IMG/VR virus record: IMGVR_UViG_3300032322_002570
Span: 9,856-73,855 of that record
From: a virus
Direction: 5' to 3' (one strand)
DNA length: 64,000 nt
In this document: positions 5,042 through 59,452 of the stretch, piece after piece
Numbering within the stretch: position 1 is the stretch's first letter
How the letters are laid out: each line of letters begins with the position of its first letter
Translations under genes and position numbers: made by a program
The notes under the pieces: generated by a model
Seen by the model: only the letters and a program-made list of their open reading frames with translations
Databases searched by the model: none
What the model was told of the DNA's origin: nothing

Positions 5042-5395
5042 TCAATGAGCCGTTCCACTCTTGCTCCGTTGATAGGTTTTTAGCGGCAGCCTGACTTGAG
5101 AGAAGCCCCGCTGCAGCCTCCCGGGGATTCCTTGGGCATGGCCAACGATCACCTTGCCTTCGAACTCCTCCAGCACGATCCAGCCCGGAAGCCAGCCATA
5201 GCCCTCAAGGCTTGACAGGACCTCAACGATCGACCCAATCGGGAATCGAGTCTCCCGCTCCAGGTCTCGATCCAGCGCCTCCAGTCGGTCGCCGCTGTAC
5301 TCCTTGGTCTCCTTCCACGCCAGTGGATGTTCCGTTACCGTACGGTAGTAATCGAGCAGGCGCTGTCTTCTGTCCATGATTTCATCTGGGTTCAT
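5042..5395 (-). CDS. hypothetical protein
   Basis: 117-aa ORF, ATGA overlap with upstream gene. Confidence 0.6.
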   Translation of the reverse strand: MNPDEIMDRRQRLLDYYRTVTEHPLAWKETKEYSGDRLEALDRDLERETRFPIGSIVEVLSSLEGYGWLPGWIVLEEFEGKVIVGHAQGIPGRLQRGFSQVRLPLKTYQRSKSGTAH

Positions 5396-6123
5396 TGTTT
5401 TGCGGGTATCGCAGTAGGAGCGAAAGAGCGGAAAGATCCGCCCCAGGCTACTGTTGCGGCAATCGAGCGGCCTCTGCCGCCCTCGTCACCAAGGTTGCCC
5501 GCGTTGATACCAAAGGCCCACGAACTGCCTTTTGGGGAATAGCTTAAACCGGCGGTTACACCACGAGAATAGCCAATACTAACGCCAACCTCAGGCGTAA
5601 TGCCTAGCCCGACGCCGCCGACCAATCCGCGCCCTCGGTCGCCACCGTTCGCGTAACCAGCACTGATCTGTAGTGGCATGTTGCCCACTGCGCCAGCACC
5701 GGTGATGACACCATAGGCCGAGGCGTTATGATCTGCGGTGCCCCATGCGACAGCGTTCAAGACGCCGCCCCCGGCTGCTAAGCGGAAGTCTGGCCGGCTG
5801 ACCAGGTCACGTCCAAGCCTTACGTCAAGGCCACCGGACCCTTCGACATCCACGCCAGCGCCGATCTCAAGTGCGACAAGGCGGCCCGCGTCGCCAAGAC
5901 CGAAGCCACCGCCGACCGCTCCACCACTGTCAACGCCAGCGCGATACTTGCCACGCTCGAGGGACCAGTCGATCTCGTCGTAGCCCCACGCAGCGCTCCA
6001 CGCGTAGAGGTCTCCATGCTGAGCAACGAAGGCGGAGGGGACCCTGGGTGCATTCAGATTTGGACCGCCGATCGCTGGCGTAGCAGCTAGAGCGACAATC
6101 GGCAATAAGAGTGAGCGTTTCAT
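5392..6123 (-). CDS. putative outer-membrane beta-barrel protein with signal peptide
   Basis: MKRSLLLPIVALAATPAIG signal peptide; Gly-rich amphipathic strands (GGGFGLGDAGRLVALEIG, SAYGVIT, VGVSIGY); start overlaps the GT2 stop (TGATG). Confidence 0.7.
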   Translation of the reverse strand: MKRSLLLPIVALAATPAIGGPNLNAPRVPSAFVAQHGDLYAWSAAWGYDEIDWSLERGKYRAGVDSGGAVGGGFGLGDAGRLVALEIGAGVDVEGSGGLDVRLGRDLVSRPDFRLAAGGGVLNAVAWGTADHNASAYGVITGAGAVGNMPLQISAGYANGGDRGRGLVGGVGLGITPEVGVSIGYSRGVTAGLSYSPKGSSWAFGINAGNLGDEGGRGRSIAATVAWGGSFRSFAPTAIPAKQ

Positions 6124-7829
6124 CACTTTTGGTACCTTGGAACGATCGGCGGATTGCGCTGCTGGAAGCTCTGCTGCAAGGCCTCGAAGCCAGCGGGGGC
6201 TCGCAGACCGCCAGTGACCGCCAGTAACAGACTGGCTGCAACATAGGTCAACAATTGCACCGGCGAACGACGTGGGTGCAGTAGTGCCACGAGCAGACCA
6301 GTCAGGATGGCCCAGCCTGCGGCGACCAGTGCCAGCAGCCAGTAAGGCTGAGTCGCGACGGCACCCGGCGTCAGCAGTACCACCAGCGTCGTCAGCACAC
6401 CAGCGACCCAGTAGGGAGCCAGCAGGCGAGATGGTAGGGCCTGTTGACGCGGATCGACGCCCTTTGGCGTGACGCGCCACATCGGTTCGCGACCACTAAC
6501 CACTTGCAAGATCCCGGCAAGCAGACCGAGCACCACCCATGGCAGTCGAACCAGTTCGAACAGTGGTGCCTCCCAACTGACCAACGGGGCCCTGGGGCGA
6601 AGTACATCCCATCGACGCAAGAGCATCATGGGCAGCACTGCGGCTACGGCATAGGCAGCAGCGAAAGCGAGGAACACGAGATAGTTGACGCGCATCATTG
6701 GCACATCAAGCAGCAGCGTGGCAGCAAGCAGCAGGTAACCGACCACGGCGGTGCCGCCGAACAATGGGTACCACAACTCGCTGTAGATGAACTCAGGCCA
6801 GAGGCGCAGCGGCAGGTCTCGACGGCGAAGTTTTCCTGGCAGCAGGGTGAGAAAGATCACCATGATCGAGCGAGACCACTGGAACTCCTGCGTCAGACCA
6901 TCGACTACTGTCGCTGGTCCTTCGCCATGGGCGATCGCGTTGATGGAGAACGAGCCACGCCAGCCCGCAGCATTCATCAAAAGACTGGTGCTGTGGTCCT
7001 CTGCTAGTTCGGGCCCGAGCCCTCCGATCTCCTTCAGGGCGGCGGTGCGGACAGCGTAATGGGAGCCTATCGCCAGCGGTGCAGCGCCATTGCTGTAGCC
7101 AGCCTGTTGGATGCCATGCAGGGGCGCTTCGGCGTAGAGGCGACCGCGAGCAAACCAGCTCCGTTCAGCACCCCGATCACAGATCGATGGCGCGGCCACG
7201 TAACCAACGCGTGGATCATTGAACGGCAGCAGCATTTGCTGAGCATAGTTCAACGCAGGGACGTGGTCGGAATCTAACTGCAGCACGAAGTCGTAGCGAC
7301 TGTATCCAACCCGATCATAAAAGAATGCAAGGTTTCCTTCCTTGCAGCGCGTGCGTCGTGGCCATGTTGGTCGATGGTAGTCATCTCTGCCACGGCGCGA
7401 GCAGACCTTAATACCAAGACTGCGACACCAGGCCAGGGCCTCAGCAGTAGGATCCTCGTCCGCGAGCCAGACGTCAACCGACACCCCTTCCCGCTGCACG
7501 CAGCCAAGCAGGGTTGGGACGACGTCTTCGAACCGCTCGGCCGGCGCCCTGGTCACCACCATGGCCACGCGCCAGTGATCCGGAACCGTCAGGCTGCTGG
7601 CCGGACGGACAGCCCGTGCCGCCCAAAAATAAAGCCAGAATGGTGCGAGTAGCTCGTAGACTACAATGTAAGTTGCGCCAATCGAGAACGGCAGCCAGAC
7701 GTGGTGAGGCGGATACAACCACCAGATTAAATAAAGAGCCGCGACAATCGCGGCGGGCATAACAGAAAGAAGTAGAGCAAATCGCTGGCGGGTATTTAGC
7801 AGTGGCCGCTGAAAGTGCGGGCTACTCAC
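6123..7829 (-). CDS. processive GT2 glycosyltransferase, cellulose-synthase (BcsA)-like
   Basis: 2 N-terminal TMs, KEGNL, DSD (DxD), AED (TED-like), QEFQW (QxxRW position), several C-terminal TMs; GTG 7829 preceded by GGAGGAG. Confidence 0.88.
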   Translation of the reverse strand: MSSPHFQRPLLNTRQRFALLLSVMPAAIVAALYLIWWLYPPHHVWLPFSIGATYIVVYELLAPFWLYFWAARAVRPASSLTVPDHWRVAMVVTRAPAERFEDVVPTLLGCVQREGVSVDVWLADEDPTAEALAWCRSLGIKVCSRRGRDDYHRPTWPRRTRCKEGNLAFFYDRVGYSRYDFVLQLDSDHVPALNYAQQMLLPFNDPRVGYVAAPSICDRGAERSWFARGRLYAEAPLHGIQQAGYSNGAAPLAIGSHYAVRTAALKEIGGLGPELAEDHSTSLLMNAAGWRGSFSINAIAHGEGPATVVDGLTQEFQWSRSIMVIFLTLLPGKLRRRDLPLRLWPEFIYSELWYPLFGGTAVVGYLLLAATLLLDVPMMRVNYLVFLAFAAAYAVAAVLPMMLLRRWDVLRPRAPLVSWEAPLFELVRLPWVVLGLLAGILQVVSGREPMWRVTPKGVDPRQQALPSRLLAPYWVAGVLTTLVVLLTPGAVATQPYWLLALVAAGWAILTGLLVALLHPRRSPVQLLTYVAASLLLAVTGGLRAPAGFEALQQSFQQRNPPIVPRYQK

Positions 7830-8043
7830 AACTCTCCTCCAGTGGACTCCAGGCGCCACACCAATGAATCGGAAACACTTTGGGCCAAAACAAGGAGTCT
7901 TTTGGCGGCTTGGCTCGGCACTCGCCGACTGCTTGGCTAACGGGAACGTAGTAGTAGCAGTTTTCGCACCGCTGTTTGGATCTCGGCGGATACGGTGAAT
8001 GGTTAGCCATGATTCTTTGTCTCGTCGGTATGTCCAAAACCAC
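7822..8043 (-). CDS. small Cys-rich protein (HiPIP-like/metal-binding)
   Basis: CENC...GEC...WCGAW four-Cys pattern. Confidence 0.6.
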   Translation of the reverse strand: MVLDIPTRQRIMANHSPYPPRSKQRCENCYYYVPVSQAVGECRAKPPKDSLFWPKVFPIHWCGAWSPLEESCE

Positions 8044-9110: not shown

Positions 9111-9563
9111 TTAGAAATCTCCGTGGTCCTGTCCAACATCAAAGACGAAAATACCTCGTTCGACCCACATCTCAACCACTCGCTTGCGGTCGTCGAAGGC
9201 CGCAACAATCTCGTACTCCCGTTCGATCTCGTCGGCGATCTCGCCCTTGACGATCCGATCGTCGCGGTGGTCCCCGGCCTGGCGCATCAGCAGTCCATCC
9301 GGGTGGATGCCGTGACGAGCCAGCCACTCCTCGGATTCACCCCGGTACTCTTCACTGCGGCCGGAGACGCAGAGCAGGGCGTAGTCCCGGTCCATGCGGT
9401 CCAGTGCCCTGAACATCGCCACCACGGGCTCATGCGGCTTGTCCAGCGGCAGGCCGGCATGCCAGGCATCCCAGTTCTTGGGCCTACGGGAGACGAAGTG
9501 ACGCCGATGGGCGACGTCACACAGCGTCCCGTCCAGGTCGAAGATGTAGCATTTAGTCTTCAT
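9111..9563 (-). CDS. HAD-family 3'-phosphatase (PseT/Pnkp phosphatase domain)
   Basis: FDLDGTL, SGR, LLMRQAGDHRDDRIVK and FDDR motifs. Confidence 0.9.
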   Translation of the reverse strand: MKTKCYIFDLDGTLCDVAHRRHFVSRRPKNWDAWHAGLPLDKPHEPVVAMFRALDRMDRDYALLCVSGRSEEYRGESEEWLARHGIHPDGLLMRQAGDHRDDRIVKGEIADEIEREYEIVAAFDDRKRVVEMWVERGIFVFDVGQDHGDF

Positions 9564-10030
9564 CGAACCGGTGCGACGTGATCAAAGCCCTCAGTGAGGG
9601 AGGGGTGCTGCCACTTTGAAACCATGTCCTCGAGGACGCCTTCGGGGACCGCTCGATCACCCCTGGCCGCATTGCGCCCCCTCAGGGTGTCGATGTCAGC
9701 CTCGAAATAGAGGCAGATCTTGGTGTAATCGTCCGGGAAGCGGTTGGCCTTCTTGATACGCGTCTCCGGCGTGAGGTTGGTCTGGTCCCAGACCACGCTG
9801 CGGCGAGAGCGCAGCATGAGCTCGATGTCGCGCTTCAGGAACTGAGTGGCGCTCTTGATCTGGCCTGCGAAGATCTCATTGTACGGCCTGTCGGAGATCC
9901 TGGCCGCGAGTTCGATGTAGTGGTCTGTCGATAGCAGTCCTGCGTTTTTGAACGTAGGGTCAGCCAGGATTGCGGCGGCGTGGGTCGATTTTCCGGACCC
10001 CGGCGGCCCGGCCAGCATGATCAGGAACAT
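9560..10030 (-). CDS. P-loop polynucleotide 5'-kinase (AAA_33)
   Basis: GPPGSGKST, STD, WDQTNL and RNAAR motifs. Confidence 0.85.
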   Translation of the reverse strand: MFLIMLAGPPGSGKSTHAAAILADPTFKNAGLLSTDHYIELAARISDRPYNEIFAGQIKSATQFLKRDIELMLRSRRSVVWDQTNLTPETRIKKANRFPDDYTKICLYFEADIDTLRGRNAARGDRAVPEGVLEDMVSKWQHPSLTEGFDHVAPVR

Positions 10031-11223
10031 CCTTCTATGATCCAGTCGTACTTCCGCAGTGTAGCAGATCTGCCGCAGGCCTGCAGGAGCCGCTCACGCA
10101 GGTAGTCGCCGGCCTCGGCCCCGTCCAGCATCGCAAAGAGCAGCGGCTGGATGAGAGGGGCCTTCTTCTTGATGGCTTGAGCCAAGCTCTTGCGCCGCCG
10201 CGCCGGATCCCCCGACTGGTCGGTCTCGCACAGGATCTCGTTCAGGGCACGCAGCGCGTGCATCCGCCAGGAGGCCACACCGCGATCAAGCTTCGCCTGG
10301 TACTGCAGCAGATCGTCGCGGCGGACCTTCGGCAGAAGGGGTAGGATGTCGTCGAGTTGATCCTCCAGGATCGCCTTCGTGTGGGCCCTGCGCGTATGAA
10401 AGCCCGCCAGCACGCTGTGCTTGAACACGTAGTCGTCGGCCTTAACCTTAAGCATCTCACCATTGTCAAACCGAACAACGATGCCCTCTTCGCCTAGACG
10501 TGATCGCACCTCGTTCACGAGTGCGTCTTTACGCGACGGATCAGAAGAGCCGGTCGACCAGACGACAGGGATGCCCCAGCGGTCCGCGACAGACCGCAGT
10601 GTCTGAATCCCGACGTAGTGGCCCGTGGTCTTTTCGCGGATCGCGGTCAACACCATTCGATCAACTGGGTAGTCAATCACGATCGGATCCTGGCGAGAGC
10701 ACCACTCGAAGATCGCCGTCCTGCCCTCGCGGTCGAGCTCGAGCATGAACTCGACGTAGGTGGGCCGACGTGCCAGGAAGACCTCGGCCCGCAGCGCGGT
10801 CTCGCTGATCCCGGACTTTGTGTGCAGCCTGAGGGCCCCGTTGATCACGACCGGGAAGACCATCGATCCGTCCAGTTTCTCCAGGATCGAGTGCCCCAGC
10901 CCCAGGTCCACCACGGAAAGGTCGGTCTCTTCGCGCTCGTTGACGTTGAAGAACTTGTGGTACGGACGGGCGATGAGGCGCCCGGAGTCATCGAAGACCA
11001 GCCCTCGACACTCGCGGCGGATCAGCATGTTGTGCAGCCCGAGACCCTCGTCGTACCCGAAGGTCTCAGGGTGTGCCACCATGTAGCGGATGACCTTGCA
11101 GCCGTCTCGCTCGAAGACGCGGAACTCCTCGCGTCCCTCAATATGAGGCAGTACATCATTGATGTGTTCGATGACCGGGAACGCCTGTTCCGGCGCTGCG
11201 GCGCCAACAACGGGGACTGACAT
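10021..11223 (-). CDS. RNA ligase 1 (T4 Rnl1 family)
   Basis: RECRGLVFD, RPYHKFFN, KLDGS (motif I), FEW, EGIV, LKVKADDY. Confidence 0.92.
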   Translation of the reverse strand: MSVPVVGAAAPEQAFPVIEHINDVLPHIEGREEFRVFERDGCKVIRYMVAHPETFGYDEGLGLHNMLIRRECRGLVFDDSGRLIARPYHKFFNVNEREETDLSVVDLGLGHSILEKLDGSMVFPVVINGALRLHTKSGISETALRAEVFLARRPTYVEFMLELDREGRTAIFEWCSRQDPIVIDYPVDRMVLTAIREKTTGHYVGIQTLRSVADRWGIPVVWSTGSSDPSRKDALVNEVRSRLGEEGIVVRFDNGEMLKVKADDYVFKHSVLAGFHTRRAHTKAILEDQLDDILPLLPKVRRDDLLQYQAKLDRGVASWRMHALRALNEILCETDQSGDPARRRKSLAQAIKKKAPLIQPLLFAMLDGAEAGDYLRERLLQACGRSATLRKYDWIIEGCS

Positions 11224-57371: not shown

Positions 57372-57803
57372 ATGGAGGGCTTCGATTCTTTCTCTCAGTT
57401 CGAGGCTATCCCAGGTGCAGTGGGGGCGTTCGTCGACGACTTGCCCCCGCTCACTCATGCGCAGATCAAGCCGTTTGTGATCGCCATCCTGCTCAAGCGT
57501 GGCGGCGTCTCGCCTCACGAGGTCGTCGCCGCAATGAATGCGCACTGCCGCGATGAGGAAACCAAAGAAGGAGGGTGGGACCCGATCGACGAAGATTGGA
57601 CCGAAGGCACCCTGCTCGAGAAGATGGTCGACGAGGTTTTTGGCAAAATGGTCGCCGATGGCGAGCTTGAGTACAGCGAAAAACGTAATACCTGGAAGAT
57701 ATCACCTGGATCTCTTCGTAGCGTGATACAATGGTGCACGTGCATGGGGGCACGGATCCCCGCACACCTCTTCATGGACCTCGGACTGCAGATACACAGA
57801 TGA
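57372..57803 (+). CDS. hypothetical wHTH-like protein
   Basis: 143 aa, coupled to dcd. Confidence 0.55.
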
Positions 57804-59452
57804 TCTTAAACGACAAGCAGATCGAAGAGTTGTGCTACGACGGAATGATCGAGCCTTGGAGATGCGGTCTTGCTCGCAAAAGCATTGCCGGACGCGGGAT
57901 CTTGTCATACGGCCTTGGCTCGTATGGCTATGACATCAGATTGTCGCCAAAAGAGTTTCGAGTCTTTAAGCGACTGCCCGGGATGATCGTTGACGTCAAG
58001 GCATTCAGCGACGTTAACCTAGAGCAAGTGGCATTGCTATACGACAATTCAGGAGGACCCGCTGACGGCTCCGCTTATTTCATTCTGCCGGCTCACTCCT
58101 ATGGGCTCGGTGTCTCTCTTGAGCGGATCAAGATGCCGAAGGATGTCACGGCGCTGTGCATCGGTAAAAGTACTTACGCCAGGTGCTTCAGTGGGGACAC
58201 TAAGGTCAAGCTTGTCGACGGAGACTATTCGTTCACCGAGCTGATTGAGCGAGCGAACGCCGGGGAAAGGCTGTATGGGTTTGGTGTTCTTGATGGCCGC
58301 ATTGTTATCCAAGAGCTCGTATCGCCTAGGTTTATCGATAATAGCGCCTTGCTAGAGGTTGCGCTTGACAACGGCGAGTTGATCCGATGCACTCCCGATC
58401 ACAAGTTTCTTCTTAAGAACGGCGGCGAAGTAGAGGCCCGGCATCTTGAGTCAGGGGATTCGCTACACGCCATTTACGAGTGGGATGACCACGGCTACCC
58501 GGGGGTGTACGATCCCGTCTTTGCAGCAAGGCTCGGGTCCTCTGGCCGCGACAGAAGAGGAGCCCGCTCTTCTGTCCATCGGATGGTAGCCAGGGACATA
58601 CTTGGAAAAAGCGAAGGCTTTGACGTTCACCATTTGGACGGCAACAAGCGCAATAATCACCCATCCAACCTCGAGTGCATCTCCGCATCCGAGCATGCGC
58701 GAATCCATAACAGAGAAAGCTTGCGGCACCTGCTAGGCGGCCAAGCTAGTGCCGAGAAGTTTGCGACCGACCCCGAACATCGCCAGAAGATCTTGAGCAT
58801 TTTGCACTCTGACGAAAACAAGCAAAAGGCGGCGGAGGCCAGGCGTCCATATCTGCATTCCAGTGAAAATCACAAGCGGCTTTCGATAGCACGCCAAGCG
58901 CGATGGCAGCAAGAGGGAGCAAAGGAGAGACAGTCGCTAGTAGCTAGAAACGGCGTAGGGGCTTTGCGTCGTCGAGATGACATTACCCATGAGGCCTTGG
59001 TAAATGCGCTGCTTGCTACCGGCTCCGTTAGGGGGGCGGCTAGAGTCCTGGACGTAGATAGATCGGCGTTTCGTCGGTTTCCACACATCCTTCAGCGGTT
59101 CAAGGAAGGAAGACTTGCGGAAAATCACAAGGTGAAACAAGTTAGCCCGGTCCCTGGAAAGCACCCGACCTACTGCTTGACCGCTCCGCGAACCGGCAAC
59201 TTTGCGCTTTCCGCTGGTGTATTTGTCAAAAACTGTGGTATCATCGCGAACACTACGCCGATCGAGGCTGGATGGGAGGGTCACATCACTCTCGAGTTCA
59301 GTAACTCTTCCGACGCGGATTGTCGGATCTACGCCTACGAAGGAGTGTGCCAGCTTCTGTTCTTCCGTGGTGAACCATGCCTCACCAGCTACTCCTGCCG
59401 CAGTGGCAAGTACCAAAACCAGGAAGACCGCGTAACCCTTCCGAGGGTTTAA
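57800..59452 (+). CDS. dcd: dCTP deaminase with intein
   Basis: [28 protein letters not shown]|[21 protein letters not shown]. Confidence 0.95.
58184..59233 (+). mobile_element. intein in Dcd carrying an HNH endonuclease, 350 aa
   Basis: YAR|CFSGDT, CTPDHKF, VHR...[30 protein letters not shown]|CGI. Confidence 0.92.

Follow-up and report, generated by a model that had tools for sequence, protein, structure and literature searches.

The window analysed here is a 64,000-nucleotide stretch of the IMG/VR virus record IMGVR_UViG_3300032322_002570 (positions 9,856 to 73,855 of that record). On its minus strand it carries two adjacent genes, one for a membrane-bound family 2 glycosyltransferase (GT2) and one for a small secreted protein modelled as an outer-membrane beta-barrel (Table 1). 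A preliminary description, made from the sequence alone, had read these genes as a phage-borne module for polysaccharide synthesis and export. Our analysis supports the core of that proposal: the pair is likely to be a host-derived two-gene polysaccharide synthesis and export module on an S-CBS2-like cyanosiphovirus. What the analysis shows directly is the structure of the genes, their folds and families, the synteny with a host operon and the setting in a phage. The TGATG overlap between the two genes was confirmed by direct reading of the junction (...CAA AAG TGA TG AAA...). The start of the GT2 gene is likely the GTG at position 7829, because a Shine-Dalgarno-like GGAGGAG precedes it and because it agrees with the database gene call P0004. 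Residue numbers of the GT2 refer to the longer, 578-aa frame.

Table 1. Features of the synthase and barrel genes (positions in the window)
Feature	Position	Strand	Details
Processive membrane GT2 synthase, BcsA-like fold, no PilZ	6123..7829	-	568 aa; Pfam, profile, AlphaFold2, Foldseek
Longer GT2 open reading frame from first GTG	6123-7859	-	578 aa
LDSDH, DxD motif binding donor and metal	7263..7277	-	Residues 195-199; aligns with BcsA DADH
LAEDH, at catalytic TED position	6993..7007	-	Residues 285-289; aligns with BcsA TEDAET
QEFQW, QxxRW position	6876..6890	-	Residues 324-328; aligns with BcsA QQRGRW
WRVTPKG, gating-loop-like (BcsA FxVTxK)	6459..6479	-	Residues 461-467; aligns with BcsA FAVTAK
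TGATG junction	6121..6125	-	Sequence read; GT2 stop and barrel start share one base
Secreted protein modelled as 12-stranded outer-membrane beta-barrel (P2)	5392..6123	-	243 aa; AlphaFold2, VIA, Foldseek
Signal-peptide-like N-terminus	6064..6123	-	MKR, hydrophobic core, TPA/IGG; judged by eye
WGGSFRSF, beta-signal-like last strand	5422..5445	-	Barrel family consensus ends ...WGxNFRTxxF, often C-terminal

The GT2 has the size, the processive motifs (KEGNL, DSD, AED and QEFQW) and the transmembrane helices that had been noted from the sequence. WLADEDP lies at residues 131-137 and CKEGNL at 172-177. D196 and D198 of LDSDH are invariant across the GT2 family, as are E287 and D288 of LAEDH. At the QxxRW position, Q324, E325, Q327 and W328 are invariant in two family alignments (A1 and A4), and glutamine stands in place of arginine in 14 of 14 and 39 of 39 aligned family members. 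Since the Q and W are kept family-wide, QxxQW is a family variant and not a phage-specific loss. In the gating-loop-like WRVTPKG, the T and K are invariant in the family and the P is conserved at 90% or more; the change from F to W occurs only in the phage copy. Overall, the phage protein retains 143 of the 156 columns with at least 90% conservation. Hydropathy and the helices of the AlphaFold2 model indicate about eight hydrophobic helices, two of them N-terminal and about six C-terminal. The protein thus combines a GT-A domain with DxD and (T)ED motifs, C-terminal transmembrane channel helices and a gating loop, which are the features of a processive membrane GT2.

Three Pfam models (Glyco_trans_2_3, Glyco_transf_21 and Glyco_tranf_2_3) match the GT2 above cut-off. 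A profile of its family aligns to the BcsA structures 4hg6 and 4p00 (E 3e-18) over the glycosyltransferase domain and the transmembrane region, and the alignment spans the DxD, TED, Q..W and FFCGS-like motifs and the gating loop. The AlphaFold2 model, built with 39 homologues, has a mean predicted local distance difference test score (pLDDT) of 89.8 and a predicted template modelling score (pTM) of 0.88. Foldseek places BcsA first (E 6e-18; query-based TM-score, TMq, 0.63-0.69), followed by chlorovirus and Xenopus hyaluronan synthases and plant CesA. The absence of a PilZ domain, noted earlier, was borne out by the Pfam scan and the model. The label "cellulose-synthase-like" needs qualification: the fold is BcsA-like, but the relationship is distant. 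Against the curated CelA model TIGR03030 the phage protein scores 60 bits where the cut-off is 699.1, and against NF008558 it scores 30 bits where the cut-off is 992. It has neither the equivalog score nor the PilZ domain nor the BcsB, BcsZ and BcsC partners of BcsA/CelA proper.

The second protein was also described correctly as signal-peptide-bearing and Gly-rich. It starts with MKR, a hydrophobic core and TPA, consists of 21% Gly and no Cys, and has no lipobox in its N-terminus by sequence reading. An AlphaFold check had been named beforehand for the barrel, and the AlphaFold2 model, built from 25 sequences, does fold as one (pLDDT 85.8, pTM 0.80), with 12 strands within residues 39-228 that are modelled at pLDDT above 90. 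The N-terminal segment at residues 6-17 falls below pLDDT 50. Strand dyads expose Val, Leu, Ile or aromatic residues on one face and mostly Gly, Ala or Ser on the opposite face. With its signal-peptide-like start, its amphipathic strands and a family consensus that ends in F, the protein is predicted to be an outer-membrane beta-barrel. Residues 21-38, the conserved mature N-terminus (family P.L.P.GVPSAF.A.WGD), are modelled at pLDDT of about 93 before the first strand and might form a lumen plug or a periplasmic contact.

All top Foldseek and VIA matches of the second protein are outer-membrane barrels. Foldseek ranks KdgM first, then a designed 12-stranded transmembrane barrel and OmpG. The strong VIA matches are the COG4313 channel (Z 17.6), KdgM (17.5), FapF (17.1), VhGalP (16.1), NalP (15.5) and NanC (15.2), and the fits to the 12-stranded KdgM, NanC, COG4313 and FapF have a root-mean-square deviation of 2.4-3.2 over 157-192 residues at 4-13% identity. 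Against the KdgM/NanC porin family the barrel shows a match in fold (Z 15-17.5) and none in Pfam at E ≤0.01. Pfam, NCBIfam and PHROGs gave no match for the phage barrel, its host homologues or its paralogues. An exhaustive phmmer search yielded 31 relatives, where a word-indexed protein search returned the protein itself and nothing else; the named relatives are hypothetical proteins of Cyanobium. Its Atlas neighbours are cyanobacterial outer-membrane barrels and a cluster bearing the exopolysaccharide protein YjbH. The preliminary description had expected a BcsC-like pore. An outer-membrane barrel is indeed what the model gives, but it is of KdgM size, and its 12 strands and 243 aa leave no room for a tetratricopeptide repeat (TPR) domain. 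Known synthase-dependent exporters have 16-18 strands (PMC9601211), with a TPR or other scaffold, and the barrel is smaller than every known polysaccharide exporter. The missing features lower a BcsC-type claim, but not a possible role as exit pore.

The same two genes are found together in Cyanobiaceae. In a first sample of 201 Cyanobiaceae genomes, a strong homologue of the barrel was present in 14 and the GT2 in eight; seven genomes have both genes on one strand, separated by about 1 kb. A wider sample of 401 Cyanobiaceae genomes, for which flanks were fetched, contained the GT2 in 20 and the order GT2, glycoside hydrolase family 26 (GH26)-like gene, barrel at 17 loci. A UDP-glucose dehydrogenase (UGDH) gene is located upstream wherever the contig extends that far, and the gene between it and the GT2 is GalE above the equivalog cut-off at both loci checked. 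The Cyanobiaceae operon therefore comprises UDP-glucose dehydrogenase, GalE, GT2, GH26-like hydrolase and barrel; a divergent Acyl_transf_3 gene often adjoins it. A JGI metagenome scan seeded with the barrel returned 24 loci, with GH26 directly upstream in 20 and the full trio in 16, so the co-occurrence elsewhere on which the early proposal depended is found both in genomes and in freshwater metagenomes. Exceptions among the host genomes with a GT2 are a GT2-GH26 fusion where the barrel is absent (G001, locus L007), a degenerate locus (G158) and a genome with loci cut by contig ends (G228). For the operon dehydrogenase, the best matches are the UDP-glucose 6-dehydrogenases TuaD and AglM. The GH26-like protein of Cyanobiaceae most resembles a GH26 beta-1,3-xylanase and a lichenase, with mannanases only after these. 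GH26, UGDH and GalE were not found in the phage, which keeps the GT2 and the barrel. In hosts a GH26-like gene always intervenes, so only this phage has the minimal pair in directly coupled form. The idea of a minimal synthase-plus-pore system is therefore apt for the phage, where the pair is coupled, but not for host operons, which have five genes and insert the GH26-like gene.

Variants of the host loci were also observed. In the degenerate locus (L124, G158:C20) the GT2 is directly followed by a truncated barrel reading frame with in-frame stops, and GH26 is missing, which indicates that the operon decays in some Cyanobiaceae. A second barrel sublineage lies directly upstream of a Wza-like (Poly_export/SLBB) gene at four loci (L125-L128, in genomes G163, G055, G106 and G168). 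At L125 and L126 this barrel is directly downstream of a protein of about 724 aa without Pfam or NCBIfam match, which in L126 is split into three reading frames. Composite translocons of an outer-membrane polysaccharide export (OPX) protein and a beta-barrel have been described in Myxococcus, and the layout of L125-L128 resembles them, but with a 12-stranded barrel.

The GT2 family extends far beyond Cyanobiaceae. It has more than 3,000 relatives in the protein database, the named ones being from Rhizobiales, cyanobacteria and candidate division WWE3, and the genome scan adds loci in other bacteria of the candidate phyla radiation (CPR), Planctomycetota and Bacteroidota. At 80 genome loci (L007-L086), mostly from Rhizobiales, the GT2 is almost always fused to, adjacent to or one gene away from a GH26-like gene; GH26-domain fusions occur in many cyanobacterial forms, and in many Rhizobiales UGDH lies between GT2 and GH26. 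The QxxQW GT2 together with GH26 looks like an uncharacterised, widespread synthase-hydrolase module. None of the 80 loci has a barrel near the GT2, and so the GT2-barrel linkage is specific to Cyanobiaceae. The presence of the family in CPR bacteria shows that it does not need an outer-membrane partner. One locus titled Bacillus subtilis SK6B4 (L050) has a GT2-UGDH-GH26 layout and coordinates like those of Pseudochrobactrum/Rhizobiales loci (L024, L029, L042), and this assembly is probably contaminated or mislabelled.

GT2 loci in virus records (L001-L005) are the exception to this linkage, being without GH26. Three virus records of giant-virus size (327-345 kb; L002-L004) encode chlorovirus-type membrane GT2s that belong to the same family, at 36-37% identity. 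On a viral contig of 6.7 kb (L006), the gene immediately upstream of the GT2 is UGDH. Neither GH26 nor the barrel is present at L002-L006. When IMG/VR was scanned with the GT2, the viral relatives that came up were all distant, and the single GT2-GH26 contig among the results had no barrel. The barrel itself gave no hits in IMG/VR, either as a single sequence or as an alignment, and none in a tblastn search against 50,697 phage records. In the latter set only Synechococcus phage S-CBWM1 has a distant BcsA-like gene.

The source virus is an S-CBS2-like cyanosiphovirus of 74 kb. Its record is a 73,855-bp IMG/VR entry with an estimated completeness of 92%, and the portal, TerL, primase, DnaB-like helicase, exonuclease and endolysin are all encoded in it. 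TerL is 54-55% identical to that of the Synechococcus siphophages S-CBS2 and S-CRES1-3 (genomes of 71-74 kb), none of which carries the GT2. These genes, together with the GT2 tree, support the earlier assignment to a phage with a cyanobacterial host, and the presumed hosts are freshwater or estuarine picocyanobacteria. No tyrosine integrase was found in the record, and a temperate, lysogenic-conversion reading is unsupported. The module is flanked upstream by a dUTPase and an RNA-repair cassette and downstream by a DprA-like gene. A small gene upstream overlaps the GT2 start by 8 nt, and the stop of the barrel gene overlaps the start of the downstream gene as ATGA. The overlaps along four consecutive genes form a four-gene translational chain. 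Promoter and terminator scans gave chance-level results only. At the nucleotide level the pair region has no similarity to any cyanophage record, and the sole matches, to Stenotrophomonas phages, cover 62 bp.

The closest named relatives of both genes belong to the presumed host group, and the pair consists of auxiliary genes of host origin within a bona fide phage genome. Three metagenomic proteins (P0005-P0007; 47-58% identity) cluster with the phage GT2, and together they fall within a clade of Synechococcus sp. CBW1107 and Cyanobium sequences that has 99% support in the Shimodaira-Hasegawa-like approximate likelihood-ratio test (SH-aLRT). In the barrel tree, a split with 99% support sets the synthase-operon barrels apart, and the phage copy, paired with P0124 (48-50% identity), falls on their side. 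Identity to the Cyanobiaceae operon copies is about 45-50% for the GT2 and 33-39% for the barrel. Both trees trace the phage copies to a lineage that is sister to the sampled operon, a pattern consistent with, though no proof of, capture of the two genes together.

In the mechanism that we propose, the synthase would sit in the plasma membrane, polymerise UDP-sugars at the cytoplasmic face and push the growing chain through its own transmembrane channel. Structures have established that BcsA- and HAS-type synthases polymerise and translocate in one step. Because it has no PilZ domain, the phage synthase would act without cyclic di-GMP. The 12-stranded barrel, translationally coupled to the synthase and exported by Sec, would serve as the exit pore through a lumen lined by Gly, Ala and Ser. 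The phage would have dropped the hydrolase, which would be dispensable for synthesis, and the precursor enzymes, leaving hosts to supply the precursors. Of 121 sampled Cyanobiaceae genomes, 111 encode NDP-sugar dehydrogenases, and precursors should therefore be available. We infer the enzymatic activity, the donor sugars, the export role of the barrel, expression during infection and the benefit to the phage. We favour the view that the infected cell gains a surface coat, which would block adsorption of further phages. Of the roles put forward in the preliminary description (receptor masking, aggregation, grazing protection), the latter two may equally apply.

The polymer is probably a linear acidic polysaccharide with glucuronate and possibly galactose or glucose. 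This is suggested by UGDH and GalE in the operon, by the closeness of the dehydrogenase to TuaD and AglM, and by analogy to the has and type 3 capsule systems. The product is probably not cellulose, given the QxxQW motif, the score far under the CelA cut-off and the cross-phylum linkage to GH26-like and UGDH genes; a cellulose reading was rejected on the CelA score and the GH26-like partner. No relevant paper on a glucuronan synthase turned up in the literature.

Comparison with known systems shows which parts of the module are familiar. The phage GT2 shares with BcsA a GT-A domain between transmembrane helices and the alignable DxD, (T)ED, Q..W, FFCGS-like and gating-loop elements, and the pair follows the BcsA/BcsC logic of a product-translocating inner-membrane synthase with an outer-membrane barrel. 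It differs from BcsA in being about 18% identical, in having two N-terminal transmembrane helices instead of four, and in having QxxQW instead of QxxRW and no PilZ domain. No BcsB gene was seen in the inspected loci, the partner hydrolase is GH26-like where the Bcs system has GH8, and BcsC has 16 strands and TPRs where the phage barrel has 12 strands and no TPR. In the hasABC and pneumococcal type 3 capsule operons, a single processive GT2 stands beside a UDP-glucose dehydrogenase, and these systems make alternating glucuronate-containing polymers. The Cyanobiaceae operon likewise has UGDH and GalE directly upstream of the GT2. Those systems are Gram-positive, without an outer-membrane step and without GH26, and the likeness is one of shared GT2 fold and gene order. 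KdgM, NanC, the COG4313 channel and FapF have the size and fold of the phage barrel (Z 15-17.6) with no sequence-family match, and the cargo that these channels take up or secrete is different. The sugars that pass through KdgM and NanC are linear and acidic. A KdgM/NanC-like fold would fit a glucuronate-containing chain, but a shared fold does not show a shared function.

Viral and rhizobial systems provide further comparisons. The chlorovirus hyaluronan synthase is also a virus-encoded processive GT2 and belongs to the second structural group matched by the phage protein. Chlorella infected by PBCV-1 extrudes hyaluronan fibres. Chloroviruses have no barrel partner because their hosts are eukaryotic algae without an outer membrane, and they carry their own precursor enzymes, which this phage does not. 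Synechococcus phage S-CBWM1 (L133, 114.6-116.8 kb) encodes a 'putative cellulose synthase' directly after an HlyD-like 'efflux pump membrane protein', and is thus, like this phage, a cyanophage with a BcsA-like GT2 and an envelope-spanning partner gene. However, S-CBWM1 is a 139-kb myovirus, its GT2 is of another lineage (26% identity over 36% of the query), and its partner is an HlyD-like periplasmic adaptor and not an outer-membrane barrel. GH26 enzymes are mostly mannanases. In Rhizobium leguminosarum, a member of the GT2 family is directly followed by a GH26-like gene (L026, L036, L052), and GmsA is the genetically defined glucomannan synthase of this species (PMC4149787, PMC11406972). GmsA (RL1661) may be this family member but is a lead only, and the Cyanobiaceae GH26-like protein is, as noted, nearer to the xylanase and lichenase than to mannanases.

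Several points weigh against the reading of the pair as a synthesis and export module. Known exporters match the barrel weakly by VIA (PgaA Z 8.8, BcsC 8.2, PelB 8.1), and we know of no precedent for a 12-stranded pore for a polymer. The wider barrel family was found in 60 of 401 cyanobacterial genomes at the phylum level, usually as paralogues of 340-450 aa and mostly outside polysaccharide loci; membership alone therefore does not imply export. The hydrolase that always separates GT2 and barrel in hosts, and that is the most conserved partner of the GT2 family across phyla, is absent from the phage. L007, the Cyanobium locus closest to the phage GT2, has no adjoining barrel gene, and no second phage with the synthase-barrel pair was found in IMG/VR or in the 50,697 phage records. 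The phage GT2 is altered at 13 conserved positions, including a change of the Cys of the FFCGS-like motif to Ala, and the phage barrel is changed at four and extends nine residues past the beta-signal-like Phe. Polymer production and the pore role of the barrel are both inferred. One explanation, which we regard as rather unlikely, is an active synthase for which the barrel does not serve as export pore. The barrel could be a porin for specific substrates, of the KdgM/NanC type that takes up acidic oligosaccharides, or an outer-membrane protein of general use in cyanobacteria that might by itself alter the cell surface or exclude other phages, while the polymer stays periplasmic or cell-bound or is released by another route. 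The best structural matches, uptake porins (KdgM, VhGalP, NanC) and other 12-stranded barrels rather than PgaA, BcsC or AlgE, fit this explanation, as do the widespread paralogues in non-polysaccharide contexts and the position of the host barrel after a GH26-like hydrolase that could generate oligosaccharides. However, the phage kept the barrel without the hydrolase and coupled it straight to the synthase, the barrels of synthase operons form a distinct, well-supported clade, and the second sublineage adjoins a Wza-like export protein, which links the family to export and not to uptake.

The module could also be a decaying or neutral passenger, captured as part of a host operon, stripped of the hydrolase and precursor genes and no longer able to give a secreted polymer. 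The missing GH26, a near-universal partner of the GT2 family, the missing UGDH, the altered GT2 and barrel positions and the C-terminal tail of the barrel agree with such a fate, and the degenerate host locus L124 illustrates that such loci decay. We nevertheless consider it improbable, since both reading frames are intact at 33-58% identity to their nearest relatives, which implies long divergence without stops or frameshifts. All catalytic motifs and the great majority of conserved columns are retained, both proteins give confident models, the genes are tightly coupled within a phage operon, and GH26 is absent beside the GT2 of other viruses as well (L002-L005). An assembly chimera or host contamination, in which host DNA was joined to a phage contig, would account for nearest named relatives of both genes in Cyanobium and Synechococcus genomes. 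This is extremely improbable: the pair lies 5-8 kb inside the window with phage genes on both flanks, its stop and start codons overlap those of phage neighbours, its GC content and third-codon-position GC (GC3) resemble those of adjacent phage genes, no host copy exceeds about 50% identity, and two contigs of about 73.9 kb are on record for the same protein. A synthesis and export module of host origin thus remains the preferred reading.

Other features of the phage were observed outside the pair. The RNA-repair-like cassette just upstream of the module (window 9111-11223, minus strand) consists of an Rnl-type RNA ligase and, judged from translations alone, a P-loop kinase-like and a phosphatase-like reading frame. 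The nearest relatives of the ligase are in Synechococcus phages B3 and B23, and it has no S-CBS2 counterpart. The left arm of the phage seems to be an accessory region. At 57731-59452 on the plus strand, a 573-aa reading frame matches a dCTP deaminase profile at both ends and has an HNH endonuclease domain inserted mid-protein (residues about 275-405), which could be an intein or a homing-endonuclease insertion.

To our knowledge, virus-carried polysaccharide synthases are rare, being mainly the hyaluronan and chitin synthases of chloroviruses and one annotated cyanomyovirus gene. No other example was found of a phage synthase coupled to its own outer-membrane pore. With its predicted function, the module gives a new form to two known kinds of system: polysaccharide synthases encoded by viruses, and synthase-dependent secretion. 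The QxxQW GT2 family is uncharacterised, with GH26-like and UGDH links from Rhizobiales to CPR bacteria, and the two-gene phage version offers a convenient minimal system for identification of the polymer. Cyanobacteria have many BcsA/Alg8-like synthases, and no confident counterparts of AlgE, AlgK or BcsC have been identified in them (PMC4594306). The barrel is therefore of interest: operon-fixed in Cyanobiaceae and retained by a phage, it is a concrete, testable candidate for the missing exporter. A bolder proposal, which we hold tentatively, is that the 12-stranded barrel family is the long-missing translocon of the cyanobacterial synthase pathway, the smallest such exporter and free of TPRs, that the phage distilled five genes to synthase and pore, and that a coat of acidic glycan alters adsorption, aggregation or sinking. 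If infected picocyanobacteria do secrete an acidic polymer, the consequences would extend to phage exclusion, to how transparent exopolymer particles form and to the export of carbon in lakes and estuaries.

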